Origin: an uncultured Klebsiella sp.
GTDB lineage: Bacteria > Verrucomicrobiota > Verrucomicrobiia > Limisphaerales > SXTU01
DNA: 64,000 nucleotides
Reading direction: 5' to 3'
NCBI GenBank assembly: GCA_964478755.1
Contig: CAYZJP010000007.1
Span: 1,117 to 65,116, forward strand
Shown: in pieces, positions 47,684 through 62,330 of the stretch
Position numbering within the stretch: the stretch's first letter is position 1
How the letters are laid out: every line of letters begins with the position of its first letter
Translations under genes and position numbers: made by a program
Notes under the pieces: model-generated
Database searches by the model: none
What the model saw: only the letters and a program-made list of their open reading frames with translations
What the model was told of the DNA's origin: nothing

Positions 47684-47755
47684 GCCACAGATGAAACACA
47701 GATTGAACACAGACCCGGTTCCCCATCTGTGTTTCATCTGTGTTCAATCTGTGGC
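47684..47755. repeat. REP-A intercistronic hairpin element, short form, between pfaC and oleA
   Basis: GCCACAGATGAAACACAGATTGAACACAGA cccggttcccc ATCTGTGTTTCATCTGTGTTCAATCTGTGGC. Lies between the pfaC stop (47768) and the oleA start (47658). Confidence 0.9.
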
Positions 47756-47767
47756 CAAAGAAAGGTT

Positions 47768-50700
47768 TCATTCGCTCACGCCGCGCACGGTGAAGTTCTT
47801 CATCCCGTAAATCACGCGGCCATCCACCGAGAGAAAACCGTCCACCGTCAGCAACAGGTTCTCATCGTCCCACGCCGTGATGACCGCCTCGACCGTCACG
47901 AGCGAGTCGCGCGGAATCACCTGCCCGCGATACGTCCACTCGTGCTTCGCGTCCATCGCGACGGCTTCCCAGCGCAGGCTCGCAGCGTGGCCCCAGCGTT
48001 TCACGGCGCAGAATTTCAGCAGTTGCAAAAACGACTCCAGACCGAGCGAGCCGGGCACGACGGGGTCTTGATAGAAGTGCGCCTGGAAAAACCACTCGTC
48101 CGCCACGACGCGCTTCGTGCCGCGAATGAAGCCGAGCTGCTTCGGCCCGCCGTCCGGCACCCACGCGGTGATGTCGTCCACCATGCGCAGCATCGCGTCC
48201 GCAAACGGCACTTGTGTTGGATACGGCAGCGACTTCGCGCGCGCCAGTTCCGCCGCGCTCGGCTCGTAAAGTTTCACGCCCTTGATGCCTTCCTGTTTTT
48301 CCAACGCTGCCTTCGGGAAGAAACCAAAGTAGGTGTCGCCGCGATAAATTTTCTGCGCGCCCGCGCTGACCTCGAAATCGAACCACTGGATAATCATCCC
48401 CGCCGAGCTGGAGAGGCGCGTGTTCTTGATGCGCGTGGTGAGCGTGCCCACGCCGGGCCGCACGGGCGCGAACTGCGTGCCAGTGCCGCCGAGGTTGCGG
48501 TAGGAAAGGTCGTCGCTGCTCGTGAGCGCGGAGCCGATGTAGGCCGAGAGCCAGCCGCAGGGCTGCAACGCGATTTCGAGCAGCACGGCGAACGGCATAT
48601 CGCCTTGGCGGTTCGCGGCGAAATACCATTCGCCTGGCGGCACGTCGTATTCCGCCGTGACCTCGCCGCCCGCGACCATCTTGAACGCCTCGCAGCCGCG
48701 AATCTCCGTAATGCGGTCGAGGAATTGATATGGCGCGCGCGGCAGCCGCGCGATGCGACGCGGCGAGTCGGAGTCGAAAATGCGGTAAGGCGCGCCGAAA
48801 GCATCGGATGGATTGCCGCTGGAAAAGGCGGTGATGCGCTCGGGGCCGTAGAGCGCAAACTTCGGAGCGCCGGGCTCCGAACCGGCGTGTCCTACTCCAC
48901 TCGTTACTGCCTGCCGGTTTGGAAACCGGCGCTCCGCCGCATTCCACATCGCCCGCAATTCCTCCCGCGTCACGCCCGTGTAGCGCAGGCTCATGTTGCC
49001 GATTTCGACAATCGCCTTGCCGTCGGCATACATCAGCGCGTCGGCGATGACATACGGCTCCGGCCCGTAGCCGATTTCTTTAATTTCGATTTCGTAAGTG
49101 ACAACCTTCGTCGTCTCCAAAACTTGCCCGCGACACTTGAGCTGACCAACAACGCCGGGCACGGGCTCGAGCGCGACGCCTTCGCGTGCTTCCGCCACCC
49201 AGCCGAGCCGCAGCAGATGCACGCGCAACGTGTGCAGGCAGCACTCATACATCAGCGTGCCCGGCATCACGCGGTCGTCCACGAAATGGCAGGTGAGAAA
49301 CCAGTCGCTCGGATGAATGTCCGCTTCGCCGCGAATCAGCCCGAGACCGAACCGCCCGCCATTCGGCTCAAGTTTTTCAATGCGATGCACGAGGCGCATT
49401 TTTCCGCCGGGCAGCGTCACGGGTTTCGCTAGCTTCAGCGCGGCGAACTTCTCTCCAAAACATTTTGCCAAGTCGCCTTCGCGCAATGCGTCGAGTTGCG
49501 CCGCCGAATACGACTCCACCGCCATCGGCACGAAGTCTTCCCAATCCGCCGGGCGTTTGCCGGGCGTTGGCTTGAGTTGCAGCGCGGTGCGCACGACGCC
49601 TTTGCCCGCCGCCAAATCCTGCGGCGTGAAAAAGCCCGCGCAGCCCTCGGTCATCGTGAGCAGCGGCTGGCCGCCAACGGTGGACTCGAAGTTGAACTTG
49701 AAGAGCCACACGCCGCTCTGCTGGAAAAACCGCTCGATGCGGATGTCATAACGAATCACTTCACCCGGCCCAGGCAGACTGCGATGAAAGCAAACCTTCG
49801 CGTCGAGCAGCCGATACATCGCCAGCCCGCGCGTCTGGAAATCAATGCCGAGAAAACCGGAGAGAAACAAATCCGCCTGACCCGCCTCAACCGCGATGCA
49901 CGTCGGAATGCGCCCGCAATCGAGATACCACGCGCCCGGATGAACATCGTGCTCCGTCACGACTCGCCCGTGTGTCATCGAGCGCGGCTCGCCCTCGATG
50001 GCCGTAATGCGGTCCACCAGTTGCAACGGCGTATCGGGCAGCCGCACGCGCGTCGGGAAGGAATCCACTTCAGCGAAGAGCGAGCCGAGCGCGTTGCCAA
50101 TTTTTCCAATCGCAAATTCAAAACACTGCTCGCGCGTGAGCGAGCGCGGAACAGTCGTCGGAGGAGCGCACGCCGCTGGCGTGCCGTCTTCAGCGGCCCG
50201 CTGAAAACGTCGTTCCTCTAACTCTCCTCCACGCGCCTCGAAGAAAGGTGGCATGACGATGGAATTGGGCGGGCCGCCCAATTCCGCACGCGGGCCGCGT
50301 GCGCTCCCCGCCCCATTCGCCGCCCGCGCCACCAAATCCAACTGCGTCTGCACCGCCTCGGACAGCGACTTGAACACGCCTTGCGAGAACGCCAAGTAAG
50401 CCTCGTGCGCCTGCAACGTCGTCGCCTGCGCCTGCGCCATCGCCGTGAGCAATTCGGCTTCAAAAGGATCCTCTGCAACTTCAGTTCTCGCCGGCACAAG
50501 CTGCGGCTCCGCCCCTCTGCTGGGTGGAACGGGCCACTGGCCCGTCCCGTCGGGCGACTCGCCCGACGGAATTTCGGCGCGTGTCCCTGCTACAATCGTG
50601 CTCCCTTCAGTCCGAGAGTGCGCCGTCGCTCCGCGCAGCGGGTCGCTGCGCGGAACAGGCGAGTCGCCTGTTCCACCCGAACCAGACTTCGGCCGCTCCG

Positions 50701-53700
50701 GCACCACGATGCGCGCACCCGTAATGGGGATGACCACCTGCTTCCCTTCCGGTTCCGGCGCGGCTTCTTCTTCGCGCACGCCATACAGCGGCTCCAAGTT
50801 CACCGGCAAACCTTCGGCCCACAGCGCGCCGAGCACTCGCAGCACGTCCAGCAGCGGCTCCTTCGCCGACAGGCACAGCGAACGGGCGAAGTGCGGCTGC
50901 CCTTCCAAAATCTGTCCAATCATCCGCGAGCACGACGCACCCGGCCCCATCTCGATGAAGAACCGCACGCCATCCGCATACGCGGCTTGCACGACGCGCG
51001 GAAAATCAATCGTGGCGCTGGCCTGCGCGACGATGGCATCCGCCGCCGTCTCACGGTCAGGCAAATAACTGCGGCCCCAGCCGCCGCTGTAGAACGTCAC
51101 GTCCGCCGGCGGCGTGGTCGTGAAGCGATGCAGCTCGCGATACGGCTCCAGCACCGGCTTGAGCAGTTCGCAATGCACCGTGCTCACGCCGTCGAGCGCG
51201 AAGAAGTGGCAGCCGAGTTTTGTTACAAGCGCATGCACCTGCTCCGCGTCGCCGCCGAGGACGCATTCGCGCGGCGTGTTGACGATGAGAATGTAAGTGC
51301 GCGCCAGCCCGGCCATCGCAGCGCGGACTTCCTCGGCGGGCCGGTCAACGAGGCCCGCAACCCAAGCGACAGACTGTTCAGCAGGCAGTTTCCACGCGCG
51401 CCGCAGCGCGGCAGATTCGCCGGTCAAATCCTTCGTGAACAACGTCGAGGCCGTGACGCGCGCGAGCATGTCATCACGTGCAGTCCATGCACGAAGTGCG
51501 AACAAACTCGTGCTCTCGCCGAGGCTGTAGCCGATGGCGGCATTGGGCTTCAAGCCGAGCGAAACCGCGATATCGCTGACGAACGCGCCGAGCGCGACCT
51601 GTCCGCAAATCGAAACGCGCTGGTCGGTGACGGGCACGGTGGCATTCCAGAATTGCGCGGCAAACATCTGGCTGGCGAGCCGGTCGTTCTCGCGATCTTG
51701 CGCGCGAAGAATTTCCGGGAACAGCAATCCCAGTTCGCGCCCCATGTCCGCGAAGTGATTGCCCGCGCCGGGAAAGACGAAGGCGACTTTGCCGCGAACG
51801 CGCTTCTCCGGCGGAGTGAAGAAAAGCCGATCACGGTCGCGGTGGTCGAGTGAAGGTAGGGCCGCGCTGCCGCGCGGCTGTTGGATGAGCAAAGCCGCGG
51901 CATCCAGCAACCGGGCAAATTGCGCGCGTTCTTCGGCGATGAAGGCGAGCGTGAGGAGCGCCGAGCATTGCTCGGCATTGGCGGCGGCTCTGGCCGAGCG
52001 ATGCTCGGCGCTCCAATGCCAGCGACGGGCCAGCGTGTCGAGCGGGGCGCTCGGCGCAGAGGCGGCAAGGCGGCGGAGTGAATCGAGTTGCGCGAGCAGT
52101 CCGGCGGCCTCGTCGGCCGCGAATGTGAAGAGGGCATCCCCCCGCTTGGCAGCAGCCGACGTGAGGAGGATCTGACTGACAGCCCTCTCATTAGCACCGG
52201 GCTTCAGCCCGGTGTGAATGCGCGCAAAGTCGCAAGCCGTTTCAACGGCTTCCCGCCCGCCCGAAACCGTTGAAACGGTTTCGGACTCTTCACTGTCCGG
52301 AGACACCCGGCTGAAGCCGGGTGCTAATGAAACAGGAGATGATGGGTCAAAAACTGGAGCTTCCTCCAACACCACACACACCGCATTGCCATCCACGCTG
52401 CTCGTCGTGACTGCGGCGCGGCGCGGGCCGTCGGCGCGGTCGCGAACCCACGGTTGCGGCGCGGCACCGCGCGCGTGACGCGGCAGCACTTCGCCGTGCA
52501 ATGCGAGCGCGGCTTTCGCGAGATTCACAAGACCCGATGCCGCGCCGGTGTGGCCGACTTCGTTTGCCGCGCTGGCGATTAAAACGGAGTTATCAAAACC
52601 AGCCTCAGCACAAGCGCGCGCGGTGGCGAGTTGCGCTGCGGAGCGCGGCCTTGAGGCCGCAGAAACCTCCGAAGTTTTGTTTCGCTCGGACGGGATCTGG
52701 ATCGCCTCGTCCTTCGCGCGCTTCTGCGGCGTGAACGCCGCGCTCCCAACACCGATACCGCGAATCACGGCGTAGATGCGGTCGTTGTCGCGCTGCGCGT
52801 CGTCGAGACGTTTCAGCACAATTGCCACGGCGCCTTCGCCGGGAATTTCATTCGCACCGAGCGCGGCTTCGGCGAGGCGAGCGCGGAGGTCGCCGGTGAG
52901 TTCCACGCCGCCGGAGAGTGCGAGATCGAGTTCGCCCTGTTGCAGCGCGCGCACGGCGATTTCGAGCGCGCTCAGGCCGCTCGTGTCCTCGCTGCACACG
53001 GTGTAGCTCTGGCCGCCGATGCGGAATTCCTTCGCGATGCGGCTGGCGTTCGTGCCGGCGAGCGCGCCCATCGTGCGGTCGGCGTTGAGCGGCGGGCCAA
53101 CGGAATCCGCGGCAGCCTGTCCATCGCGCAGCATCGCCCAGCGCAGATGAAAATCCGTCGTGCGCAAATCCAACCCGAGGCCGATGAAGACGCCCGTCCG
53201 CGCGGGGTTGGGGCCGTTCACACGCGCGTCGGCGAGCGCGTCGCGCGCGACTTCGAGCATCAACGCTTGCTGGGGCAGCAACTCGCCGAGTTCGCGCGGC
53301 GGAATGCGGTAGCGGTTGACGGGTATGGCGAGGTCGTCAACGAAATAACCGGCGAGCTGGGGAGCGCACGCCGCTGGCGTGCCGTCTTCAGCGGCCCGCT
53401 GAAAACTTTGTTCGACTGATTTGTCTTCCTTCGCCGAGGAAGAAGATGGAGTGACGGGCGAATTGGGCGAGCCGCCCAATCCGGCACGCGGGACGCGTGC
53501 GCTCCCCGTCGAGCCGCAGGACGAGCGGAGCAATTCAGTGTTCAGGCCGCGCCAGTCGAAGCGGGCTTGCGGCTGTGTCTCGGTGTCCGCACCGAGCACG
53601 CGGGCGGCGAAGGAACGGAGATTTTTCCACGGACCGATGTGCGCCGCGAGGCCGACGATGGCGATGGGAAATGGGGGATGGGGAATAGCGTCTGGCGTCT

Positions 53701-55303
53701 GGGGCGAAGCGCTTGGAGCGCCGGCTTCCAAACCGGCGTTTGCCGATGCACCGGAACTCAGCTCTCGCCGAACCGGAGTTCGGCGCTCCGTTTGTCCGCA
53801 CCACTCCTCGATGAGCACGTGCGCGTTGATGCCGCCGAAGCCGAAGCCGTTGATCGCTGCGCGGCGAGGCGCGTTTGCTTCACGACGATTCCACGGCTGG
53901 CTTTCCTTCAACACGCGGAAGGGGCTTTCGCCGAGCGGAATTTTATCCGAGGGCCGCTGAAAATTCGGCACGGCGGGCAGCGTGTTATTTTTCAGCGCGA
54001 GCAAGACCTTGACAAGCCCCGCCGCGCCCGCGCCGGTGAGCAAGTGGCCGATGTTGGCCTTCACCGCGCCGAGCGCGCACTGGCCGCGCTGCCACGGACG
54101 CCCGGCCCAGAGTTGTTGCAGGCTCGTGAACTCGACCGCGTCGCCGACCGGCGTGCCGGTCGCGTGGCACTCGATAAAATCCACCGTCTCCGGCTCCCAT
54201 CCGGCGGACGCGTAGGCGAGCCGCAGCGCGCGCAACTGGCCTTCGGAACTGGGCGAAAGCAAATTCCCGTCGAGATCGTTCGACACGCCCGCGCCGCGGA
54301 TGAGCGCGTGAATCTCATCGCCGTCGCGGAGGGCGTCGGAAAGGCGCTTCAACACGACGACGCCCGCGCCTTCGCCGACGATGAGTCCGCTCGCCGCCGC
54401 ATCGAAGGGCGTGCAACGCCCGCTCGTCGCAAGCGCGCGGAGCTGCGAGAAACCCATCTGCGTGTAGAGCGAATCGGGCCGCGAGACGCCGCCCGCAAGC
54501 ATCGCATCGGCGCGGCCCGCGTGGAGTTCGTCGCTGGCAAGCTTGAGGGCGTAGAGCGATGAGGCGCACGCGGCGTCGAGCGTTCGCGTGCCGCCGCCGA
54601 GGCCGAGGGCTTGCGCGAGGATCCCGGCGGGCAGACCGGCGACGTAGCGGTTGAGCGGATGGGTTTGGAGTGGGTGGAACGGGCTACCAGCCCGTTCCGT
54701 CCGGCCACTGGCCGGGCGGTTGTTATCGTGCGCGCTGGAGCGGCGTGCGCTGGGAGCAGGGATGCGCGCGGTCGTTCCGTTCGGCGGGTCGCCGAACGGG
54801 ACAGGCGAGTCGCCTGTTCCACCCTGCAATGGGCGGACGCCGAAGAGTTTCTCCTCCAGCAACTGCGTCAGGATTTCCTCACAGAGCTTGGAGGAACTTT
54901 CCGTGGGCAACGCGATGTGGCCGAGAGTGACGCCGACGCGGCTGCGGTCGAGTGCAGCGGTCTTTGCGCTGGTGAAGGCGTCGCGGCCCGCAGCGAGCAG
55001 GAGGTGGACGACGGGGTCGAGTTGCGCGAGCAGGTCGCGGTCAACGGCGAGGCCGGCGGGGTCGAGCGTGAAGCCTTCGATGAAACAGGCGCGGTCGGTA
55101 TAGACGCGGTCGGGCGTGCCGGGCGTGGGATGGAGGATGTCGGCGGGGTTCAGCCGCCAGCGGCCCGGCGGCGCGGGACGGCTGGTGTCGCGTCCGGCGG
55201 CGATGATTTGCCAGAACTCGTCCAGCGAGCGAGCGCCGGGGAAGACGCCGCCGAAGCCGACGATGGCGATGGGTTCGCCGAAAGATGGCGGGGCGGCGGT
55301 CAT
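47768..55303 (-). CDS. pfaC: PUFA-synthase PfaC-like megasynthase: KS - CLF-like KS - AT - 2x(FabA-type DH pair)
   Basis: Uninterrupted 2511-aa ORF. KS: IAIVGFGGVFPG, DAACASSLYAL, ECHATGTPVGD, NIGHLLTGAG. The second KS-like domain lacks the Cys (...CSEDTSGLSALEIA). AT-like: FVFPGAGNHF, GYSLGES. FabA-like DH: VTEHDVHPGAWYLD, HPSDWFLTCHFVDDRVMPGTL, EYDVPPGEWYF, ADEWFFQAHFYQDPVVPGSLGLE. No C-terminal acyltransferase. Confidence 0.9.
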   Translation of the reverse strand: MTAAPPSFGEPIAIVGFGGVFPGARSLDEFWQIIAAGRDTSRPAPPGRWRLNPADILHPTPGTPDRVYTDRACFIEGFTLDPAGLAVDRDLLAQLDPVVHLLLAAGRDAFTSAKTAALDRSRVGVTLGHIALPTESSSKLCEEILTQLLEEKLFGVRPLQGGTGDSPVPFGDPPNGTTARIPAPSARRSSAHDNNRPASGRTERAGSPFHPLQTHPLNRYVAGLPAGILAQALGLGGGTRTLDAACASSLYALKLASDELHAGRADAMLAGGVSRPDSLYTQMGFSQLRALATSGRCTPFDAAASGLIVGEGAGVVVLKRLSDALRDGDEIHALIRGAGVSNDLDGNLLSPSSEGQLRALRLAYASAGWEPETVDFIECHATGTPVGDAVEFTSLQQLWAGRPWQRGQCALGAVKANIGHLLTGAGAAGLVKVLLALKNNTLPAVPNFQRPSDKIPLGESPFRVLKESQPWNRREANAPRRAAINGFGFGGINAHVLIEEWCGQTERRTPVRRELSSGASANAGLEAGAPSASPQTPDAIPHPPFPIAIVGLAAHIGPWKNLRSFAARVLGADTETQPQARFDWRGLNTELLRSSCGSTGSARVPRAGLGGSPNSPVTPSSSSAKEDKSVEQSFQRAAEDGTPAACAPQLAGYFVDDLAIPVNRYRIPPRELGELLPQQALMLEVARDALADARVNGPNPARTGVFIGLGLDLRTTDFHLRWAMLRDGQAAADSVGPPLNADRTMGALAGTNASRIAKEFRIGGQSYTVCSEDTSGLSALEIAVRALQQGELDLALSGGVELTGDLRARLAEAALGANEIPGEGAVAIVLKRLDDAQRDNDRIYAVIRGIGVGSAAFTPQKRAKDEAIQIPSERNKTSEVSAASRPRSAAQLATARACAEAGFDNSVLIASAANEVGHTGAASGLVNLAKAALALHGEVLPRHARGAAPQPWVRDRADGPRRAAVTTSSVDGNAVCVVLEEAPVFDPSSPVSLAPGFSRVSPDSEESETVSTVSGGREAVETACDFARIHTGLKPGANERAVSQILLTSAAAKRGDALFTFAADEAAGLLAQLDSLRRLAASAPSAPLDTLARRWHWSAEHRSARAAANAEQCSALLTLAFIAEERAQFARLLDAAALLIQQPRGSAALPSLDHRDRDRLFFTPPEKRVRGKVAFVFPGAGNHFADMGRELGLLFPEILRAQDRENDRLASQMFAAQFWNATVPVTDQRVSICGQVALGAFVSDIAVSLGLKPNAAIGYSLGESTSLFALRAWTARDDMLARVTASTLFTKDLTGESAALRRAWKLPAEQSVAWVAGLVDRPAEEVRAAMAGLARTYILIVNTPRECVLGGDAEQVHALVTKLGCHFFALDGVSTVHCELLKPVLEPYRELHRFTTTPPADVTFYSGGWGRSYLPDRETAADAIVAQASATIDFPRVVQAAYADGVRFFIEMGPGASCSRMIGQILEGQPHFARSLCLSAKEPLLDVLRVLGALWAEGLPVNLEPLYGVREEEAAPEPEGKQVVIPITGARIVVPERPKSGSGGTGDSPVPRSDPLRGATAHSRTEGSTIVAGTRAEIPSGESPDGTGQWPVPPSRGAEPQLVPARTEVAEDPFEAELLTAMAQAQATTLQAHEAYLAFSQGVFKSLSEAVQTQLDLVARAANGAGSARGPRAELGGPPNSIVMPPFFEARGGELEERRFQRAAEDGTPAACAPPTTVPRSLTREQCFEFAIGKIGNALGSLFAEVDSFPTRVRLPDTPLQLVDRITAIEGEPRSMTHGRVVTEHDVHPGAWYLDCGRIPTCIAVEAGQADLFLSGFLGIDFQTRGLAMYRLLDAKVCFHRSLPGPGEVIRYDIRIERFFQQSGVWLFKFNFESTVGGQPLLTMTEGCAGFFTPQDLAAGKGVVRTALQLKPTPGKRPADWEDFVPMAVESYSAAQLDALREGDLAKCFGEKFAALKLAKPVTLPGGKMRLVHRIEKLEPNGGRFGLGLIRGEADIHPSDWFLTCHFVDDRVMPGTLMYECCLHTLRVHLLRLGWVAEAREGVALEPVPGVVGQLKCRGQVLETTKVVTYEIEIKEIGYGPEPYVIADALMYADGKAIVEIGNMSLRYTGVTREELRAMWNAAERRFPNRQAVTSGVGHAGSEPGAPKFALYGPERITAFSSGNPSDAFGAPYRIFDSDSPRRIARLPRAPYQFLDRITEIRGCEAFKMVAGGEVTAEYDVPPGEWYFAANRQGDMPFAVLLEIALQPCGWLSAYIGSALTSSDDLSYRNLGGTGTQFAPVRPGVGTLTTRIKNTRLSSSAGMIIQWFDFEVSAGAQKIYRGDTYFGFFPKAALEKQEGIKGVKLYEPSAAELARAKSLPYPTQVPFADAMLRMVDDITAWVPDGGPKQLGFIRGTKRVVADEWFFQAHFYQDPVVPGSLGLESFLQLLKFCAVKRWGHAASLRWEAVAMDAKHEWTYRGQVIPRDSLVTVEAVITAWDDENLLLTVDGFLSVDGRVIYGMKNFTVRGVSE
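48864..48935. repeat. PAL-2 element in-frame in pfaC (between DH modules)
   Basis: GGAGCGCCGGGCTCCGAACCGGCG ... GCCGGTTTGGAAACCGGCGCTCC. Encodes AERRFPNRQAVTSGVGHAGSEPGAPK. Confidence 0.85.
50163..50309. repeat. PAL-1 element in-frame in pfaC (AT-DH linker)
   Basis: GGAGCGCACGCCGCTGGCGTGCCGTCTTCAGCGGCCCGCTGAAAAC ... GGAATTGGGCGGGCCGCCCAATTCCGCACGCGGGCCGCGTGCGCTCCCC. Encodes GSARGPRAELGGPPNS...RRFQRAAEDGTPAACAPP. Confidence 0.85.
50522..50678. repeat. PAL-3 element in-frame in pfaC (after AT)
   Basis: GGGTGGAACGGGCCACTGGCCCGTCC ... GGAACAGGCGAGTCGCCTGTTCCACCC. Encodes GGTGDSPVPRSDPLRGA...SGESPDGTGQWPVPP. Confidence 0.85.
52151..52172. repeat. PAL-5 solo arm in-frame in pfaC
   Basis: AGCAGCCGACGTGAGGAGGATC matches 19 contiguous nt of the PAL-5 left arm at 4466-4488. 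Encodes ...ILLTSAAAK... Confidence 0.7.
52188..52329. repeat. PAL-7 multi-hairpin element in-frame in pfaC (CLF-AT linker)
   Basis: Terminal inverted repeats TCATTAGCACCGGGCTTCAGCCCGGTGT / ACACCCGGCTGAAGCCGGGTGCTAATGA; each arm is itself an 8-bp hairpin. The centre has CCGAAACCGTTgaAACGGTTTCGG (11-bp stem). Encodes SLAPGFSRVSPDSEESETVSTVSGGREAVETACDFARIHTGLKPGANE. Confidence 0.85.
53359..53507. repeat. PAL-1 element in-frame in pfaC (inside the CLF-like region)
   Basis: The first ~50 nt are near-identical to the 50163 copy (GGGGAGCGCACGCCGCTGGCGTGCCGTCTTCAGCGGCCCGCTGAAAAC). Ends ...GAATTGGGCGAGCCGCCCAATCCGGCACGCGGGACGCGTGCGCTCCCC. Encodes GSARVPRAGLGGSPNS...SFQRAAEDGTPAACAPQ. Confidence 0.85.
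53715..53789. repeat. PAL-2 element in-frame in pfaC (KS-CLF linker)
   Basis: GGAGCGCCGGCTTCCAAACCGGCG ... CGCCGAACCGGAGTTCGGCGCTCC. Encodes TERRTPVRRELSSGASANAGLEAGAPS. Confidence 0.85.
54672..54824. repeat. PAL-3 element in-frame INSIDE the pfaC KS domain
   Basis: GGGTGGAACGGGCTACCAGCCCGTTCC ... GGGACAGGCGAGTCGCCTGTTCCACCC, 153 bp = 51 codons. Encodes QGGTGDSPVPFGDPPNGTTARIPAPSARRSSAHDNNRPASGRTERAGSPFHP, about 50 codons upstream of DAACASS. Confidence 0.85.
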
Positions 55304-55356
55304 GCGCGGGACGCTCGGCGAGTGCGTGAGCGGGGCGGAGTGCGAGTGGGCCGTTT

Positions 55357-55491
55357 CCCCTCACCCCGGCCCTCTCCCTTGGGGAGAGGGAGAAACACAG
55401 TCAGCGGTGGGCTAGGACGTGCGTGTCCGAAAAACTCGAAGACGGGCGAGCTGGTTCCCTCTCCCGGAGGGAGAGGGTTAGGGTGAGGGGG
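55357..55491. repeat. PAL-8 composite palindrome in the pfaA-pfaC spacer
   Basis: CCCCTCACCCCGGCCCTCTCCCTTGGGGAGAGGGAG (55357-55392) and its inverted partner CCCTCTCCCGGAGGGAGAGGGTTAGGGTGAGGGGG (55457-55491). Confidence 0.85.
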
Positions 55492-55593
55492 AAGGGAAAG
55501 TTGAATGAGCGATGCGCTTTGGACGGAACGCGCGTTGCGATTTCGAGCTGGCGGAAAGGCGGCTTCGCGCGGCGGGGCGCCGCAGACACTTTT

Positions 55594-55618
55594 CTGCGAC
55601 GGGGCGTCGCAGCCACGG
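55594..55618. repeat. PAL-9 hairpin, intergenic copy
   Basis: CTGCGACGGGGCGTCGCAGCCACGG, just downstream of the pfaA stop. Confidence 0.75.
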
Positions 55619-55643
55619 ATGCAGCTACGGGACGCAACGGGGT

Positions 55644-58600
55644 TCACGCGGGCAGATGGTTCTGGCGGAAGGCTTCGCGGAGGTTCGCGTCCACGACAAA
55701 CTCGTAGCCTTCGCCGAGCGCGAGCAACGCTCCGGCGCGGTCGAAGAATTGCAGGTCGGCCACGGCCACGGGCGTTTCCGCCGAGGTGACGCGCGCGACG
55801 ACGCGGCTGCCGCCGGTCTTCGGGAACGCGGCGAACTGCCGGAAGCTCCGCAGCGCGCACGGCAGCGACGGCGCGGCGCGTTGCGCGGTGCTCCACAAAA
55901 TCATGAGCTGAAACGCGGCATCGAGCGCGAGCGGGTCGGCCAGCCACGCGGGCCGCAGCGGCTGGGCAATCATCTGCTTCGGCGCGGGCGCGGAGCGGAC
56001 GAGCGCGGCGGCGTTCGTCGGATTGCAGACTTCGAGCGCCTCGATGCATTGGAAGTCCGGGCCGTGGAAGAGACGTCCATCGCCATAAACTTTCTCCGAC
56101 AAAATGCCGTTGCGCTTCACGGCGGGCGTGATGCTCGGTGCGGTGGGCAGCGTGTCCGCGAGAAGAATTTCCGCCGTGGCGTGCAGCGTGGATTTGTTGC
56201 CGCCGTTGCGGCTGGTGAATTGCACCGGCACGGCGAGCAGGCCGTCGCGCGGCTGCGGCGGTGCAGCGGAAACGGTGACGTGCGCGGTGGCGTCGCCTTC
56301 GAGGACGAGGCCCTTGAGCACTTTGAAGCCGTCGAAGCCGTGGAAGGCGAGGCCGGGGTTGCCGTGCAGCGCGCCGTGCGCGAGCCACTCGATGATGAGC
56401 GCAGCCGGCAGGACAGCGCGGCCGTTCATGACGTGCGAGACGAGGCAGGGCAGCGCGCGGACGGAAATGTCACGGTCGAACGCGGGGTGGAAACTGGAGG
56501 GGGAACTTACTGGTCCGGGTGGAACGGGCCACTGGCCCGTTGCGGCGGGCGACCCGCCCGCCGCTCGAACTGCGCCCAGTGCGACCCGGTTCGGCTGAAC
56601 GGTGACGGTGCCGAAGCTCGACGGCAGGTTGCCGTCGAGAACGGCCAAGTTGGCCGTTCCACCCTGAACAGGCTGGGCCAACGCGAGGATTTCGACGGCT
56701 TCGCCGGTGGGGGCGAGCACGTCGCGGACGAAGCAATCGGCTCCGGCGTCCGGCTCGATGAGGCCGACGCCTTCGCGCTCGAAGATTTTGCGGAGGCCGT
56801 CGTTGACCATGCCGCCGTTCCACGGGCCCCAGTTGAAGGCGACCACGCGGCACTGCGGGCGGCGGCGGGCCTCGGCCTGCGCCATCTTGTTCAGCACTTC
56901 GTTAGCGGCGGCGTAATCCACCTGGCCGGTGCGGCCGAAGCGTCCGGTGTAGCTGGAGAAAAGTGCGATGAGGCGAAGGTCGTCGGTCGCGGTCGCGGCG
57001 AGGAGGTTGCGAAGGCCGTGGACTTTCGTGCCATAGACGAGGTCGAATTGCTCCTCGGTCTTTTGCTCAATGAGTTTGTCGGCGAGCACGCCCGCGCCGT
57101 GGATGAGGCCGCGAATCGGGCCGTGCGCGGCGCGGACTTCCGCGAGCGTGGCGGTGACGGTGGCGGCATCGCGGACATCGAGCGTGGCGTAGTGCGCGAG
57201 CGCGCCGGTCGCGCGAATCTCAGCGAGGTGCGTGCGGATTTCGCGCTGGGCCATGACTTCGCGGAACTTCGCTTCCAGCCGCTTCGGCGAGCGGTCGCCG
57301 TCGGCGTGCGCGAGCAGGGCCTTCTTAATGTCGGCTTCGCTCGTGAGGCCGACGAGCCAGTGCGGCTCGGCGTCGGGCAACGTGCTGCGGCCCAGCAGGA
57401 GGAAGCGCGGCTGGTGGCGGCGAGCGAGTTCGAGGACGGACGTGGCGGTGACGCCGCGCGCGCCGCCGGTGACGACGACGAGGTCGCCGCGCTGGAGGGC
57501 GGGCGCGGGGTTGTCGAGCACGGGGGCGGTCTCGATTTCGAGGCTGTAGCGCTGACCGCCGAAGAGGCCAACCTCGATTGGGCCGGCGCGGAAGATTTCC
57601 TCGGTGATTTGGTTCGCGAGTTCGGTGCCGCTGGCCGCGCCGGGGTCGAGGTCGAGAGCTTTGCAGTGAACTTCCGGCCACTCGTGGCGCGCGGTTTTCA
57701 CGAGGCCAGCGAGGCCGCCGCTGACGACGTCGGCGGTCGCGTTCATCACGCCGAGGCCGAAGAGTCCGTCGAGGCGTGAGGCGGAGACGAGCACGGCGGC
57801 TCCGCTGCGACCAGCCGCGCGCAGCGAGGGCGCAGCGACTTGGATGAGACGGAAGGCCGACTTGAGGAAAGCGTCGCCGCCGGACGCAGCGGGCGCAAGC
57901 AGAACGAGCGCGGCGGGCAACGGGGCGTTGCGGTCGGCGAGCAGTTCGGTGGGCGCGCCGCGACGGACGGTGAGGCCGCGTTGCTCAAGGTTCTTGACGA
58001 GCGCGGCGGTGAGGCTGGTGCCATCATCGGTGAGCCAGACGAGTGAGCCGGGCGCGAGCGTGACGTGCGGGCGCGTGTCGGCGGCTGGGAAAGGCGTAGG
58101 GCGGAGGATTTGGCGGAAGAGCGTCGGCCTGGGTGGCACGGGCGACTCGCCCGTGACGGTCGGCGACCCGCCGACCGGAATGGCAGAAGGCAAGCGAGTG
58201 GGAAGCTGCGCTGGCTTCGCAACGGACGCGTTCGTCGTTTCGTCCGGCGAGTCGCCGGACGGGACAGGCCAGTGGCCTGTTCCACCCGGAGCAGAACCCG
58301 CGCACAGGAAATCCACGACCTCCTGCAGGGTGCGAAGGGAGCCGAGGTGCTCGGGTTTGATTTCGGGAGCGCTGGGAAGTTGCGTGCGGAGCGCGGCCAT
58401 GATTTCGACGCGCTTGATGGAGTCCACGCCGAGGTCGGAATCCAGCCCCATGCCGAGGTTCAACATCTCGAGGGGGTAGCCGGTTTTTTCAGAGACAACT
58501 TGAAGGAGAACGCGACTGGCTTCGGCAGCGTCAACACCGGCGGAGACAAATGCATCCCGTGCGCTGTCCGCCGCTGTAACGCCACGCACTTCAACCGTGG

Positions 58601-61600
58601 AAGAGCCGCCCGCGCAGAGGAAGTTCACCACGTCCTGTAAAGTCTGCAACGTGCCGAGGTGCTCGGGTTTCACCTCCGGCGCATCGGGCAGGCGCGCGCG
58701 CAACGCGGCCATGATCTCGACGCGCTTGATGGAATCAATGCCGAGGTCGCTGTCCAGGCCCATGCCGAGCGTGAGCATCTCGGCGGGGTAGCCGGTTTTT
58801 TCGGAAACAATTTCGAGAACAGACGTCGCAATGCGGGAAATGTCCGCAGTTTGTGGAACGCGCGACTCCGGCGGGCAGTTCCCATCGTCGTGCTGGGATC
58901 TCTGTTCGACCGGCTTTTCATTGCGAACGACGACTGAAGTCTGAGCGGCAAATGAATCGGGCGCGACGCCCGATTCAGCACGCGAGACGCGCGCGCTCCC
59001 CAACGCTTCACGCTGCATCGGAGCCGATGAAACGGGCGCAGGAGCGATTCTCTGCACAGCGTCCGGCGCGGCGGCGGGCGCGAGCGGCGGCAGGCCGAGC
59101 AATTCGCGGCGCTGGCCCAGCAGCGATTCGAGCGAGCGGCGGGCGGCCTCCTGGTTTGCGAGAAATTGCTGGTGCAACTGCGCGGTCTGCTCCTGCAGCT
59201 TTTGCAGAGCGAGCATTCCCTGCTGCGCCGTTTGCAGCGCGGCGGCAACGTCACCGGAAAGCGGCGCGGCAGGCGAAGCAGCGCGTTGCTCCGGTGAAGT
59301 GTTGCTGTTCGCATTGACCATTTCGCGGCGCGGCAGCGGCGGACGTTCCGGCGGGCGCGTCATGCGGACGTTCGCGCCGGAGACGGGCACAGTGAACGCG
59401 GGCTTCGCGTTCTTTACCGGCGCGGCGGGCGGGACAGTTTCCCACTTCGTCAAATCCACCGCGTGACCGAGCGCGGCAACGCGGCAGAGCGCGATGGCGA
59501 GATCGAACGTGCCGTTGCGCGTGCCGCGCGAGGCGTCGAGCGCGATGGCATCCACGTCGCGGCCCGGCAGAATCGCCTGCACGAGGTCGCACAGCACGTG
59601 GCCGGGGCCGAGTTCGAGGAAGGTCGTAACGCCGTCCGCGTGCATCGTCTCCATTTGCTTGATGAAGTCCACGGGGCGCACCATCTGGCTGGCCAGCAGG
59701 TCGCGCGCGGGCTTCGCGCCCGGCGGGTATTCCCTGGCCGTCGAGTTCGCATAGACAGGGATGCGGCCCTTGGTGAAAGGAATTTCCTCCAGCACGGCGG
59801 CGAACGGCTCGCGCGCGTCGGCGACGAGCGAACTGTGAAACGCGGCGGCAACCGGCAGCACGCGGGCGCGGATGGAGCGCTTCGCGGCCTCGCCGGCGGC
59901 GTATTCGATCTGAAGCTTCGGCCCGGCGAGCACGAACTGCGTGGGGGAATTGCGGTTGGCGATGACGAGCTGCGAATCGTTCAGGCGCGCGAGTTCGGCG
60001 ACGGTTTTTTCCTCCGCCTGCACGGCGAGCATGGAGCCGCGGTCGCTGTGGCCGTTGCGGTTCGCCATCAGCCGGCCGCGCACGTTCGAGAGCAGGTGCA
60101 GCGACTCGCGCTTCAACCGGCCCGCGCCGTAGAGCGCGGCGAGTTCACCGTAGCTGTGGCCGGAAGTCGCTTCGATCGTGATGCCGAAGGATTCCGCAAG
60201 GCTCAACGCGGCGACGCTCACCGCGCCGAGCGCGGGCTGCGCGACGTCGGTGGCCTTCAATGCTTCTTCCTGCGCGTGACGGGCTTCGTCGTTGAAGGCG
60301 GGATGCGGGTAGATGAAGTCGCTGAGGCGTGGCTGCGCCGCCTCGGCGCAGCGGGGTGCGGGCGACGCCGCGTCGCCCGTTCGTGCAGCGGGGCGCTGCG
60401 CCCACGCGGACTGCGACGAGGGCGTCGCAGCCACGGCGAAAGCAGCGTCAGCGTCGGCCAGCGCGTCGAGCACTTCGGGGAACTGGCACGCGAGGTCGCG
60501 GAACATCCCGACGTATTGCGAGCCTTGACCGGGGAAAAGCGCGCCCAGTTTGCCGCGCCGCTCGCCGGAGCCGAAGCAGACGCCGGTGGGCAAGGCCCAG
60601 GAAGTTTTGTCGGGATGTTTGTCGAGCATCGCGAGCGCAGCATCGCGGAGCGGGGCGAGAGAGAATTGTTCGGAAGCCACCCCCTCACCCCGGCCCTCTC
60701 CCCCGGCGGGGGCGAGGGAGGAGGAGGCGGTGGGTTTTGACGACGATTCTTTTGAAAGCGGAAGCAACAGGCGGAACTTCGCTTCGATGCGGAAGGACTG
60801 GCGCGAGGCGTGGGCGCGGCGGCGAAGGTCAGGCCAGGGAAGTTCAGTAGGCAGCGCGGCGAGTTGCGCGCGGAGGTCGGAAAGTTTTTCGGCGCAGAGC
60901 GCAAGGATTTCCACGTCGCCGTTCCAATCGGGTGCTTGGCGCGCGCCGCCGTGTTCTTCGAGGACGCAGTGAAAATTCGTGCCGCCAAATCCAAAGGCGC
61001 TCACGCCAGCGCGGCGTGGATGATTCGCGCGCGGCAGCCACGGGCGCTTCGTCGTGTTCACGTAGAACGGCGAGCCGGGCGCGGCGTCATCGAGCGGCTG
61101 GGAAACTTTGATGGTGGGCGGCAGGACTTTTCGTTCGAGTGCGAGCGCGGCCTTGATGAGTCCGGCGACGCCGGCGGCGGCCTTCGTGTGGCCGATCTGC
61201 GACTTCACCGAACCGAGCGCGGCCCAAGCGCCATCTGACTTCGCGGCGGAAAAAACTTTCGTGAGCGAACGCAGCTCCGTGGCGTCGCCGACTTTGGTGC
61301 CGGTGCCGTGGGCTTCGATGAGTTCAACCGTGTCAGCGGTGACATCCGCGTTGGTGTAGGCGCGTTCGATGGCCTGGATTTGGCCTTCGGAGCGCGGCTC
61401 GTAAATCGCGCCGCCGCGTCCGTCGCTCGACGAGCCGATGCCCTTGAGCACGCAGTAAATTTTGTCACCGTCGCGCTCGGCGTCGGTGAGGCGCTTGAGC
61501 ACGACCATGCCGAGTCCTTCGCCGAGGATGGTGCCGTCGCAATTTTTGTCGAAGGGCTTCGCGTCCCCCGTCGGCGAGAGCGCCGGGGTTTTGCTGAAGC

Positions 61601-62330
61601 ACATGAACATGAAGATGTCGTTGAACGTGTCCACGCCGCCGGTGATGACCATGTCCGAGCGGCCGGACTGCAACTCCAGCGCGGCCAGGTGCAGCGCGGC
61701 GAAGCTGCTCGCGCACGCGGCGTCCACGACGCAGTTCGTGCCGCCGAGGTCGAGGCGCGCGGCGATGCGGCCCGCGGCGACGTTGCCGAGCAAACCGGGA
61801 AAGGAATTCTCCTGCCACGGCACGTAGCCGTCGGCGATGCGCTGCACGACATCCTCGGCGAGTTCATCATCAACGCCGGCTTCTTTCAACGCGCGCCGCC
61901 AGATTGGATGACCGAGCCGCGCGCCGAGCGGGATGACGAGTTCGAGCGCGCCGGTGACGCCGAGGAGCACGCTGGTTTTCTGGCGGTTGAAGGGCTTCTT
62001 GTCGTAGCCCGCGTCGGCGAGCGCCTGTTTCGCGGCGACCATGCCGAGCAGTTGCGTCGTGTCGGTCGCCTCGATGTCCTTCGGCGCGATGCCGAATTCC
62101 ATCGGGTTGAAGTCCACCGGCGAAATGAAACCGCCGCGACGCGCGTAGGTCATGTCGGGCGACTTCGGGTCGGCGTTGAAGAAATCGTCGGTCTTCCAGT
62201 GCGTGCGATCGGGCAGCGGCGTAATGGCGTCGGCGCCGGACTTGATGTTGCGCCAGTAGGCCTGGAGGTCATCCGCCTTCGGGAAGATGCAACTGAGGCC
62301 GACAATGGCGAGGGGGGCGGACTGGCTCAT
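55644..62330 (-). CDS. pfaA: PUFA-synthase PfaA-like megasynthase: KS - MAT - ACP - ACP - KR - PKS-type DH
   Basis: Track ORF is 55644..62534, trimmed to ATG 62330 (MSQSAPLAIVGLSCIFP), which overlaps the pfaD stop by 1 nt (TGATG). KS: DAACASSFAAL, EAHGTGTKVGD, SQIGHTKAAAG. MAT: FPGQGSQYVGM, GHSYGE. Two ACPs: LGMGLDSDLG[IV]DSIKRVEIMAAL. KR: VVVTGGARGVTA. DH: LVSHVMNGRAVLPAA. Confidence 0.9.
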   Translation of the reverse strand: MSQSAPLAIVGLSCIFPKADDLQAYWRNIKSGADAITPLPDRTHWKTDDFFNADPKSPDMTYARRGGFISPVDFNPMEFGIAPKDIEATDTTQLLGMVAAKQALADAGYDKKPFNRQKTSVLLGVTGALELVIPLGARLGHPIWRRALKEAGVDDELAEDVVQRIADGYVPWQENSFPGLLGNVAAGRIAARLDLGGTNCVVDAACASSFAALHLAALELQSGRSDMVITGGVDTFNDIFMFMCFSKTPALSPTGDAKPFDKNCDGTILGEGLGMVVLKRLTDAERDGDKIYCVLKGIGSSSDGRGGAIYEPRSEGQIQAIERAYTNADVTADTVELIEAHGTGTKVGDATELRSLTKVFSAAKSDGAWAALGSVKSQIGHTKAAAGVAGLIKAALALERKVLPPTIKVSQPLDDAAPGSPFYVNTTKRPWLPRANHPRRAGVSAFGFGGTNFHCVLEEHGGARQAPDWNGDVEILALCAEKLSDLRAQLAALPTELPWPDLRRRAHASRQSFRIEAKFRLLLPLSKESSSKPTASSSLAPAGGEGRGEGVASEQFSLAPLRDAALAMLDKHPDKTSWALPTGVCFGSGERRGKLGALFPGQGSQYVGMFRDLACQFPEVLDALADADAAFAVAATPSSQSAWAQRPAARTGDAASPAPRCAEAAQPRLSDFIYPHPAFNDEARHAQEEALKATDVAQPALGAVSVAALSLAESFGITIEATSGHSYGELAALYGAGRLKRESLHLLSNVRGRLMANRNGHSDRGSMLAVQAEEKTVAELARLNDSQLVIANRNSPTQFVLAGPKLQIEYAAGEAAKRSIRARVLPVAAAFHSSLVADAREPFAAVLEEIPFTKGRIPVYANSTAREYPPGAKPARDLLASQMVRPVDFIKQMETMHADGVTTFLELGPGHVLCDLVQAILPGRDVDAIALDASRGTRNGTFDLAIALCRVAALGHAVDLTKWETVPPAAPVKNAKPAFTVPVSGANVRMTRPPERPPLPRREMVNANSNTSPEQRAASPAAPLSGDVAAALQTAQQGMLALQKLQEQTAQLHQQFLANQEAARRSLESLLGQRRELLGLPPLAPAAAPDAVQRIAPAPVSSAPMQREALGSARVSRAESGVAPDSFAAQTSVVVRNEKPVEQRSQHDDGNCPPESRVPQTADISRIATSVLEIVSEKTGYPAEMLTLGMGLDSDLGIDSIKRVEIMAALRARLPDAPEVKPEHLGTLQTLQDVVNFLCAGGSSTVEVRGVTAADSARDAFVSAGVDAAEASRVLLQVVSEKTGYPLEMLNLGMGLDSDLGVDSIKRVEIMAALRTQLPSAPEIKPEHLGSLRTLQEVVDFLCAGSAPGGTGHWPVPSGDSPDETTNASVAKPAQLPTRLPSAIPVGGSPTVTGESPVPPRPTLFRQILRPTPFPAADTRPHVTLAPGSLVWLTDDGTSLTAALVKNLEQRGLTVRRGAPTELLADRNAPLPAALVLLAPAASGGDAFLKSAFRLIQVAAPSLRAAGRSGAAVLVSASRLDGLFGLGVMNATADVVSGGLAGLVKTARHEWPEVHCKALDLDPGAASGTELANQITEEIFRAGPIEVGLFGGQRYSLEIETAPVLDNPAPALQRGDLVVVTGGARGVTATSVLELARRHQPRFLLLGRSTLPDAEPHWLVGLTSEADIKKALLAHADGDRSPKRLEAKFREVMAQREIRTHLAEIRATGALAHYATLDVRDAATVTATLAEVRAAHGPIRGLIHGAGVLADKLIEQKTEEQFDLVYGTKVHGLRNLLAATATDDLRLIALFSSYTGRFGRTGQVDYAAANEVLNKMAQAEARRRPQCRVVAFNWGPWNGGMVNDGLRKIFEREGVGLIEPDAGADCFVRDVLAPTGEAVEILALAQPVQGGTANLAVLDGNLPSSFGTVTVQPNRVALGAVRAAGGSPAATGQWPVPPGPVSSPSSFHPAFDRDISVRALPCLVSHVMNGRAVLPAALIIEWLAHGALHGNPGLAFHGFDGFKVLKGLVLEGDATAHVTVSAAPPQPRDGLLAVPVQFTSRNGGNKSTLHATAEILLADTLPTAPSITPAVKRNGILSEKVYGDGRLFHGPDFQCIEALEVCNPTNAAALVRSAPAPKQMIAQPLRPAWLADPLALDAAFQLMILWSTAQRAAPSLPCALRSFRQFAAFPKTGGSRVVARVTSAETPVAVADLQFFDRAGALLALGEGYEFVVDANLREAFRQNHLPA
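56517..56664. repeat. PAL-3 element in-frame in pfaA (KR-DH linker)
   Basis: GGGTGGAACGGGCCACTGGCCCGTTGC ... GGCCAAGTTGGCCGTTCCACCC. Encodes QGGTANLAVLDG...AAGGSPAATGQWPVPPG. Confidence 0.75.
58131..58287. repeat. PAL-3 element in-frame in pfaA (ACP-KR linker), opposite orientation to the 50522 copy
   Basis: GGGTGGCACGGGCGACTCGCCCGTGAC ... GGGACAGGCCAGTGGCCTGTTCCACCC. The sub-hairpins GGCGACTCGCC and GGCCAGTGGCC are swapped end-for-end relative to the other copies. Encodes GGTGHWPVPSGDSPDE...VTGESPVPP. Confidence 0.85.
58321..58830. repeat. Tandem ~312-bp duplication encoding the two ACP domains of pfaA
   Basis: Blocks beginning TCCTGCAGGGTGCGAAGGGAGCCGAGGTGCTCGGGTTT (58321) and TCCTGTAAAGTCTGCAACGTGCCGAGGTGCTCGGGTTT (58633) align over about 190 bp. 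I estimate ~80% identity by eye. Confidence 0.8.
58855..59001. repeat. PAL-1-like (diverged) element in-frame in pfaA (AT-ACP linker)
   Basis: Ends ...GAATCGGGCGCGACGCCCGATTCAGCACGCGAGACGCGCGCGCTCCCC and starts GGAACGCGCGACTCCGGCGGGCAG. Encodes GSARVSRAESGVAPDS...CPPESRVPQ. Confidence 0.6.
60411..60436. repeat. PAL-9 hairpin in-frame inside the pfaA AT domain (part of a ~110-bp insert at 60330-60437)
   Basis: CTGCGACGAGGGCGTCGCAGCCACGG, a 1-nt indel relative to 55594-55618. The flanking hairpins GGCGACGCCGCGTCGCC and GCAGCGGGGCGCTGC belong to the same insert. The insert encodes VAATPSSQSAWAQRPAARTGDAASPAPRCAEAAQPR, between ADADAAFA and LSDFIYP. Confidence 0.75.
60680..60720. repeat. PAL-8 half-element in-frame in pfaA (KS-AT linker)
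   Basis: CCCCCTCACCCCGGCCCTCTCCCCCGGCGGGGGCGAGGGAG. The first ~22 nt are identical to the intergenic copy at 55357. Encodes SLAPAGGEGRGEGV. Confidence 0.8.

Follow-up and report, generated by a model that had tools for sequence, protein, structure and literature searches.

Two adjoining genes of a Limisphaerales verrucomicrobium carry nested inverted repeats inside their reading frames, which raises the question of what these repeats are, how they arrived there and where the encoded proteins accommodate them. The genes lie in a stretch of 64,000 nucleotides (contig CAYZJP010000007.1; GC content about 64%), referred to below as the window, and encode two megasynthases of the polyunsaturated fatty acid (PUFA) synthase type. 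The PfaA-like open reading frame (ORF; 55644-62330, minus strand, 2228 aa) has the Pfam domain order KS-AT-ACPx2-KR-DH, and the PfaC/PfaB-like ORF (47768-55303, minus strand, 2511 aa) contains KS, KS-like (CLF), AT and FabA-type DH domains. An original prediction, made from the letters of the window, had described both as intact ORFs with in-frame palindromic repeats. This was borne out, since both ORFs ran without interruption and the repeats were recovered at or near the positions expected. With good confidence, we identify the elements as inverted dimers of hairpins of the repetitive extragenic palindromic (REP) type, that is REP doublets (REPINs), which are associated with REP-associated tyrosine transposases (RAYTs) and read through in the frame of their host genes.

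Palindromic Repeats Within Two Megasynthase Genes

To identify repeats, the window was searched for direct and inverted copies, compared with itself by BLASTN and scanned for hairpins. Inside the two megasynthase genes, 14 nested-palindrome segments of 44-167 bp were found, nine of them in the PfaC-like gene (1098 bp, 14.6% of the gene) and five in the PfaA-like gene (610 bp, 9.1%). The presence of such segments had been predicted, with a count of about 13 and a size range of 25-160 bp; the expected diversity of seven or more families agreed with the about nine found here, designated A to I. Perfect hairpins with a stem of at least 8 bp numbered 34 in the region 47768-62534, compared with 5.9 ± 2.8 in dinucleotide shuffles (z-score about 10), and 21 in the rest of the window, compared with 12.2 ± 3.0. 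Folded as single strands, one family-B copy reached -53.3 kcal/mol (z-score -5.9) and one family-A copy -52.1 kcal/mol (z-score -5.3). The window holds about 20 copies of families A-I, 18 of them within genes, and the pfa genes, which make up 26% of the coding DNA, contain 14 of these 18 (binomial P = 6e-6). Copies of family A are about 148-167 bp long and those of family B about 150-167 bp in the pfa genes; family C is an inverted dimer, 60-76 bp long, of GGAGCGCCG and a hairpin, and family F has the form CCCTCTCCC..GGGAGAGGG.

The first insert of the PfaC-like protein is a family-B copy with four sub-hairpins (54671-54826; ends GGGTGGAAC ... GTTCCACCC), which occupies aa 160-211 (QGGTGDSPVP...) in a loop of the KS N-terminal domain; most orthologs do not have it, and others have family A or another family in that loop. 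The KS-CLF linker (aa 506-530, ERRTPVRR...GAPS) holds a family-C inverted dimer made of the GGAGC tag and a hairpin (53715-53790), and a family-A copy (53350-53516; ends GGGGAGCGC ... GCGCTCCCC) encodes aa 597-651 (GSARVPRAGLGG...FQRAAEDGTPAACAP). The family-H element, an inverted dimer of the GGAGCGCGGCC-hairpin (52640-52746, aa 854-888), was found in five of the 22 orthologs and is not in the sister ortholog P0009. At 52188-52330 (aa 992-1038) a family-E element (52228-52287) is nested within one of family D, and a single arm of family G lies just downstream of this pair (52141-52178). A family C-type dimer of the GGAGCGCCGAGCA-hairpin follows (51955-52014, aa 1098-1117), which ortholog P0005 has in a collapsed one-hairpin form. 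The AT-DH linker carries both a family-B copy (50520-50686, aa 1540-1595, GGTGDSPVP...TGQWPVPP), at a site where nearly every ortholog has some repeat family, and a family-A copy (50163-50310, aa 1666-1714, GSARGPRAELGGPPNS...) that is 81% identical to the copy at 53361-53508. The last insert, of family C, lies between the DH modules (48863-48936, aa 2124-2148, ERRFPNRQ...EPGAP). The peptides quoted in the original prediction, GGTGDSPVP, GSARGPRAELGGPPNS and ERRTPVRR...GAPS, are all present.

In the PfaA-like protein, a single family-F arm (about 60677-60720; CCCTC..GGGAGAGGGCCGGGGTGAGGGG, translated as SLAPAGGEGRGEGV) shares a 20-nt exact match with an intergenic copy of that family. The AT region (aa 634-664) contains a family-I element of three hairpins of the CTGCGACG..CGTCGCAG type (60332-60430), which this genome alone has among 20 orthologs and which has a related copy in the pfaA-pfaC spacer. 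The remaining three occupy linkers: family A ahead of the first ACP (58855-59002, aa 1111-1160), family B behind the second ACP (58131-58287, aa 1349-1400, GGTGHWPVP...TGESPVPP), and another family-B copy between KR and DH (56510-56671, aa 1886-1940). The latter is common to only two of 19 orthologs, and one ortholog has family A at the same site.

Copies had also been predicted elsewhere in the window, in non-coding DNA and in unrelated genes, and these were found as well. Intergenic copies comprise family A at 43648-43794, between the oleD-like and oleC-like genes, and family F (55351-55496) with family I (about 55560-55618) in the pfaA-pfaC spacer (55351-55618). The valS gene has two copies, one of family A in opposite orientation (31078-31218, about 47 extra residues) and one of family C (31759-31829, aa 439-461). 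Two DUF7133/cytochrome-c genes have one each: a family-C copy in a 1269-aa cytochrome-c/HEAT protein (16166-16241), in the linker directly ahead of the DUF7133 domain, and the perfect 23-bp inverted repeat of family G in a 1048-aa protein (4466-4558), directly behind that domain.

A separate, AT-richer palindrome family (CACAGATGAAACACAGATTGAACACAGA ... inverted) occurs at 8165-8262, 9544-9703, 11487-11633 and 47672-47768, in spacers at gene ends only. It had no match in 117 related loci (L001-L117) and looks like a terminator or a REP-like element.

Inserts Read Through in the Host Frame

The base composition of the inserts was compared with that of their hosts by codon position. The GC1/2/3 values were 0.70/0.67/0.68 for the 668 in-element codons and 0.67/0.47/0.81 for 7431 host codons, so that the codon periodicity of the genes of this genome is absent from the inserts. 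The insert peptides were enriched in Ser, Pro, Gly and Arg, in accordance with the Gly/Pro/Ser/Arg-rich character described in the original prediction, and Tyr, Met, Leu, Trp and Phe were almost absent. Related sequences sit in intergenic DNA and in unrelated genes, in either orientation and in differing frames; family A, for instance, gives GSARGPRAELGG... in the pfa genes but EPGSVGGPPADSGG... in valS. In related genomes, the family-B arms that lie within genes used all six frames, with 5-10 arms in each, which indicates that the element is not a fixed coding module. The flat codon-position GC and the copies in non-coding DNA and unrelated genes support the claim that the segments are DNA-level repeats and not polyketide synthase (PKS) sequence. 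In composition and placement, the inserts resemble non-coding DNA through which the host frame is read.

As predicted, all of the 18 intragenic copies kept the frame and left the host frame without stops. The number of open frames is one to three per copy in family A, and in the copy at 50163-50310 the only stop-free frame of the six is the host frame. Many GC-rich copies are open in several frames, and an open host frame alone is thus weak evidence, informative for family A only. Family-B lengths modulo 3, measured arm to arm, were distributed as 21/8/25, a result without information value, as the exact boundaries are uncertain and many of the copies are intergenic.

Location of the Inserts in Protein Models

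A structural check was consistent with the predicted loop and linker positions. Residues 1-1000 of the PfaC-like protein were modeled with AlphaFold2 from a 67-sequence alignment, with a mean predicted local distance difference test score (pLDDT) of 78 and a predicted template modeling score (pTM) of 0.85. The pLDDT fell below 50 at 159-208, 509-537, 600-648, 858-884 and 986-1000, which are the five inserts of this region, and elsewhere only at residues 1-4. For ValS, the comparison was made with the valyl-tRNA synthetase (ValRS) of T. thermophilus (1GAX). Query residues 3-213 correspond to chain residues 2-207 and query residues 261-421 to chain residues 208-363, and the family-A copy adds about 47 residues between the adjacent 1GAX residues 207 and 208. 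At the family-C site the T. thermophilus enzyme has four residues, compared with about 30 here. The copies in the DUF7133 genes are at domain borders. According to the model and these comparisons, the inserts lie in loops and inter-domain linkers.

Another segment of ValS, aa 500-596 (31947-32235), has about 65 extra residues relative to chain residues 416-447 of T. thermophilus ValRS. No palindrome was detected in it; the segment could be a decayed element or an insertion of the usual lineage-specific kind.

Gain and Loss of Elements Among Orthologs

We aligned 22 PfaC-like and 20 PfaA-like orthologs, and a neighbor-joining tree of PfaC was built from 2017 ungapped columns. The named orthologs, as well as the family-B pattern matches described below, point to the Verrucomicrobiota, order Limisphaerales/Pedosphaerales. 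In PfaC, ten hot-spot sites were found at which outgroups and many ingroup members have short linkers: 16-17 residues at site s1 and 11-20 residues at site s3, compared with 66 in the window protein at either site. Five ingroup orthologs were checked, each with about 83% backbone nucleotide identity to the window. Some ingroup sites were empty, and the others contained family A, B, C, F or a further one, with a distribution discordant with the tree; the PfaA orthologs gave the same picture of short linkers and patchy elements.

At site s1, the loop in the KS N-terminal domain, both the window and P0014 have family B. Family A occupies this loop in P0002 and P0004, though not in P0009, the sister of P0004; P0003 and P0013 have a family-A-like variant, and P0008 has a further family. 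Orthologs with an empty site retain the outgroup-like linker EQATFGTGTSPALKTH, from which it follows that the filled states were gained independently, with replacement of about 10 codons. The original prediction had proposed an ortholog alignment as a check for lineage-specific indels. The short linkers of the outgroups and most ingroup members agree with this proposal, and by alignment the inserts are lineage-specific indels, with the same loops occupied by different families.

P0004 and P0009 are 93-95% identical in DNA, yet they differ by two whole elements, which indicates that gain or loss continued recently. Elements that the window and an ortholog have in common at one site were 67-85% identical, mostly near the backbone identity, and are consistent with old, inherited copies. 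At the pfaA-pfaC junction, the two genes overlap by 4 bp (ATGA) in five orthologous contigs, whereas the window has a 340-bp spacer (55304-55643) built of the family-F and family-I copies. The repeats have thus probably abolished the translational coupling of pfaA and pfaC in the window.

The empty sites have a feature of their own. Empty s1 reads ...CTGGAAC|CTCGCCC... and empty s4 ...GGGAAC|TCCGC... (L198:250-7302 compared with L199:1001-7828), so that GGAAC or GGGAAC stands where the element ends (GGTGGAAC, GGGAGC) start; the window elements concerned are those at 52640-52746 and 54671-54826, and s3 differs. These short sequences could be a target preference or an excision footprint.

Anatomy of the Elements and Comparison With Known Systems

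When one genome of each GTDB species was scanned with the family-B arm pattern, at least 114 stretches matched, nearly all in metagenome-assembled genomes (MAGs) of Verrucomicrobiota/Limisphaerales/Pedosphaera, several of which had 5-15 contigs each. The related loci contained 54 full family-B copies in size classes of about 101, 125, 147-149 and 158 bp, all with the same four-hairpin plan of tag, hairpin 1, hairpin 2 and spacer, followed by both hairpins and the tag inverted. In 118 of 159 distinct arms (80 sequences), hairpin 2, which lay outside the search pattern, had a stem of 6 bp or more without mismatches, compared with three of 159 after shuffling, and its stems co-vary around an AC conserved at the tip. 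The foot of family B, G-GTGG-AAC, leads into a 7-9-bp stem with AC at the tip, and in this it carries a tag as REPs do; a GTGG variant of the GTAG tag was reported for GTAG-20 of Opitutus terrae (PMC3733652). Every full copy consists of two inverted arms around a 15-90-nt spacer. Tagged hairpins in inverted doublets give family B the anatomy of a REP doublet, that is a REPIN or an element like the bacterial interspersed mosaic elements (BIMEs). A mainly extragenic location, typical of REPs though not strictly defining, was not seen, with 18 of about 20 window copies being intragenic. Among the related loci, at least 47 of 136 family-B arms lie deep in long ORFs, a rough lower bound obtained by the crude measure of ORF length and GC3>GC2.

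The original prediction took the Rickettsia palindromic element (RPE) as precedent. In-frame palindromic insertions are established for RPEs (summarized in PMC10969869). According to the summaries of Ogata et al. 2000 in PMC10969869 and PMC3733652, they are palindromes of about 100-150 bp that form several families, lie in-frame in unrelated genes and are placed in predicted surface loops compatible with the host fold, and the inserts described here are likewise in-frame and compatible with the fold. RPEs occur only in Rickettsiales, whose genomes are small and AT-rich, and RPE-1 has no known transposase; the host here is a GC-rich free-living verrucomicrobium, and its relatives have a RAYT flanked by the same arms. 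The likeness is one of behavior only, and sequence homology is not to be expected. The precedent thus held for in-frame behavior, but the closest class of element is REP/REPIN rather than RPE, with arms of families A and B flanking RAYTs in relatives.

The prediction also knew of no description of such a case in a PVC-type genome. This claim of novelty is too strong, as intragenic in-frame GTAG and CGTC REPs are known from several bacteria, of which O. terrae has the most intragenic GTAG REPs (PMC3733652). In O. terrae these REPs are in uvrA, ligase and helicase genes, with tRNA synthetases as hosts in other species, and they add 20-80 residues (PMC3733652). The O. terrae REPs (Di Nocera, De Gregorio & Rocco 2013, PMC3733652) come from the same phylum and are similar in being tagged GC-rich stem-loops, mostly inverted dimers, which are in-frame in housekeeping genes and which flank RAYT genes. 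The families described here differ in that they come from the Limisphaerales, have two hairpins per arm and four per element, include the GGAGC tag (A, C and H), place 14 elements in two genes and reuse the same loops for different families, as far as the published descriptions go. REPs lying in-frame inside tnpA_REP genes have been reported too (PMC6006769). In the REPIN-RAYT systems of Pseudomonas and E. coli (PMC8049555, PMC6006769), inverted doublets likewise form a long hairpin and the same REP brackets a single RAYT. Those REPINs are extragenic and their RAYT is free-standing, whereas here most window copies are intragenic and the RAYTs of the associated clade are usually embedded in alaS or recG. 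No description of REPs in PUFA synthases was found in the open-access literature searched.

RAYT Genes in Related Genomes

In one related locus, L023, two family-B arms 600 bp apart enclose a RAYT gene with the HUH motif PDHVHLII and the Y motif RYVCGNP. Its product matched NCBIfam NF047646 (REP_Tyr_transpos) over 142 of 146 model positions with E = 3.9e-20 and 72 bits (cut-off 80), and gave a weak match to Pfam Y1_Tnp. Relatives of this RAYT were found in three more GTDB loci and in at least 513 metagenome stretches; the genes in contigs of GTDB MAGs are L023:3032-3601, L038:7417-7953, L048:2343-2921 and L097:618-1187, and the metagenome contigs are L118-L197. The arms that flank the RAYT are of family-B type in L023 and L120 and of family-A type in L126, L127 and L192; the left flank in L126 reads GGGGAGCGCGCGCGGCTCGCGTGC ... 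ACACGCCAGCGGCGTGTACT(A/C)CCC. Arms of families A and B thus bracket RAYTs of one clade, which indicates that both major families of the window belong to such REP sets. The motifs of the clade, DHVH, WQ and Y[IV]xRNP, resemble those of RAYT subclass 2.7, given as [ND]HVH, WQ and YI[LR][NQ]NP (Quentin et al., PMC6006769). The HUH motif DHVH is intact in 77 of 84 RAYT loci and the Y motif (YxxxNP) in most.

Most of these 84 genes are themselves embedded in host genes. The RAYT lies in-frame within alaS in 34 loci, at no fewer than two different positions, within recG between helicase motifs I and II in 32, and within a glycyl-radical enzyme like pyruvate formate-lyase (PFL) in one. Twelve others are in other long open frames, one host being an Ala_racemase_N-domain protein, or are cut by contig ends, and just five look free-standing. 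Many of the embedded RAYT loci probably descend from a few old insertions, so that the independent events would be far fewer than 84. TnpA proteins that were 'unexpectedly long' were set aside by Quentin et al. (PMC6006769), who took them for fused genes or errors of annotation, and no description of a RAYT inside alaS or recG was found in the open-access literature searched.

Proposed Mechanism and Alternative Explanations

Each unit is made of a short tag, which reads GTGG-AAC in family B and GGAGC in families A, C and H, followed by one or two GC-rich hairpins, and two such units facing each other over a spacer form an element of 60-167 bp. We propose that a RAYT of the HUH/Y1 type, encoded elsewhere in the genome, copies these REP doublets to new sites, probably in the form of single-stranded hairpin DNA. 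A copy that lands in a gene would survive only if it alters the length by a net multiple of three, leaves the host frame free of stops and sits in a surface loop or linker; it would then be transcribed and translated as a disordered loop rich in Ser, Pro, Gly and Arg. With their many permissive linkers, megasynthases may accumulate many copies, and the repeated use of sites could reflect either the scarcity of permissive sites or a target preference. The inserts would be neutral or nearly so.

Several observations weigh against this mechanism and the assignment to REPs. No RAYT was found within the 64-kb window, and that one moves the elements in this genome is something we infer from genomes of the same order and from metagenome contigs. 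Translation of the inserts is predicted from their open frames alone. Copies within the window are 61-89% identical to each other, which does not indicate current activity in this genome, and no sign of it is apparent among them. Families A, C and H carry a GGAGC tag that does not figure among the GTAG and CGTC variants published so far. Probably the sequence comes from a metagenome assembly, in which repeats are a known cause of error, although independent assemblies carry the same kinds of inserts. Finally, a filled site is not simply an empty one with a clean insertion, about 10 ancestral linker codons being replaced, and no target-site duplication was seen at the 54 family-B copies or in the filled/empty comparisons of s1, s3 and s4; with neither duplications nor clean boundaries, the chemistry of insertion is unreadable from the sequence.

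A stronger version of the REPIN-RAYT reading can be put forward tentatively. It would hold that a REPIN-RAYT lineage of the Verrucomicrobiota has specialized for coding sequence, with both the doublets (in PUFA synthase and ValRS) and the RAYT (in AlaRS, RecG, the PFL-like enzyme and others) carried as translated in-frame inserts, the transposase depending on essential host genes for its expression and vertical inheritance, and insertion aimed at particular loops. Such aim would account for the presence of at least four families at the same site of about 10 codons.

It is also possible, though unlikely, that the elements spread without a transposase, through template switching, microhomology-mediated repair at forks or gene conversion, and that the RAYT is incidental. 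The untidy junctions with local replacement, the GGAAC or GGGAAC at empty s1 and s4 where element ends start, and the different families at identical sites, as if an existing repeat draws the next, would all fit such a process. Moreover, to our knowledge the mobilization of a REPIN by a RAYT has never been reconstituted. However, among 84 RAYTs that are 52-81% identical, the HUH motif is kept in 77 and the Y motif in most, which points to maintained activity, and in several host genes unrelated to one another the RAYT has the same arms on its flanks, as expected of a unit that moves with its ends.

[quoted passage not shown] MITEs such as Nezha, Correia/NEMIS, ERIC and BOX (PMC3184786, PMC10969869) are small and non-autonomous, have inverted termini and can fuse in-frame with ORFs. 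The operational definition of a MITE would cover elements of 60-167 bp with terminal inverted repeats, which is what we found, and in-frame MITE insertions are known (PMC10969869). Those MITEs derive from or depend on DDE-type IS and usually make target-site duplications, whereas none was seen at the family-B copies or in the filled/empty comparisons, and the termini here are tagged, REP-like hairpins with co-varying stems. The sole transposase found between matching arms was a RAYT, no systematic IS search being made.

The inserts might also never reach the finished enzyme, if DNA excision, RNA processing or protein splicing took them out beforehand, and their hairpins would suit RNases as substrates. 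This is very improbable, because removed inserts would be under no constraint of frame or stops, whereas all 18 intragenic copies are frame-keeping and stop-free, including the family-A copy with stops in the other five frames. In addition, the Rfam scan of the window gave no intron or other RNA family, the tRNA scan of the window gave nothing, and Pfam scans of the host proteins revealed no Hint/intein domain. Lastly, linkers of PKS and PUFA synthases are often Ala/Pro-rich and variable in length, and the inserts do sit in linkers, but the explanation that these are simply native linkers of low complexity that evolve fast and took shape at the protein level, with incidental palindromy, is almost certainly wrong and was rejected, as it is contradicted by the flat codon-position GC, the near-identical DNA that stands between genes and, in other frames and orientations, in valS and the DUF7133 genes, the hairpin excess, and outgroup linkers of 11-17 residues at s1 and s3 where the window protein has 66.

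Genomic Context of the pfa Genes

The two megasynthase genes have the organization of a Pfa-type synthase, in the order pfaD-pfaA-pfaC within one operon and with the domains expected from Pfam, though with only two ACPs in the PfaA-like protein. The PfaD-like enoyl reductase is encoded at 62330-63871 (minus strand), and its stop codon is overlapped by the ATG taken as the start of the 2228-aa PfaA-like protein; this start agrees with the ortholog consensus MSQSxPLAIVG, and the longest ORF reaches 62534. A PfaE phosphopantetheinyl transferase was not seen within the 64-kb window. Downstream of pfaC, also on the minus strand, are oleA-like (46606-47658), oleB-like (alpha/beta-hydrolase, 45713-46996), oleC-like (AMP-ligase, 44046-45716) and oleD-like (3-beta-HSD, 42641-43633) genes. 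Orthologous contigs keep the pfaA-pfaC-oleA/B/C order, and the gene content suggests a polyolefin or secondary-lipid pathway.

Other repeated features of the window were recorded as well. Three large paralogs on the plus strand (2833-5979, 14541-18350 and 21959-25039) combine DUF7133, HEAT repeats and a C-terminal cytochrome c, an architecture typical of the Planctomycetes-Verrucomicrobia-Chlamydiae (PVC) group, and two of the three have a repeat element at a border of the DUF7133 domain. Three tandem paralogs on the minus strand (35260-36309, 36216-36893 and 36904-37563) are 57-64% identical in DNA. The intergenic region 37711-38000, between 36904-37563 (minus) and 38121-38984 (plus), contains an array in which a 21-bp unit (CGAGGTTATCTGGCCCAGGTT) is repeated about five times; a 63-bp period was scored for it as well, and the array overlaps long inverted repeats.

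Significance of the Inserts

What is new here concerns the families of the Limisphaerales with their double-hairpin arms and GGAGC tag, the Pfa megasynthases beside an ole cluster as hosts, the density of the elements, and the turnover of families at identical loops. The finding bears on how far a bacterial proteome tolerates selfish DNA, as about 9-15% of two 7-kb genes is repeat DNA and one insert lies inside a catalytic KS domain. For the annotation and engineering of Pfa and PKS proteins in the Verrucomicrobiota, it means that these segments should be treated as dispensable inserts, which mark natural permissive sites in KS, CLF, AT-DH and ACP linkers. Unlike in Rickettsia, a candidate transposase flanked by the same arms is available in the lineage, and the spread of in-frame palindromes is thereby open to experiment. 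If the embedding of the RAYT in alaS and recG is true, it would represent an unusual route of persistence for a mobile element. That the inserts could be a source of linker innovation is an idea raised in the original prediction; if a REPIN-RAYT lineage had indeed specialized for coding sequence, they would be a standing source of linker material in megasynthases.

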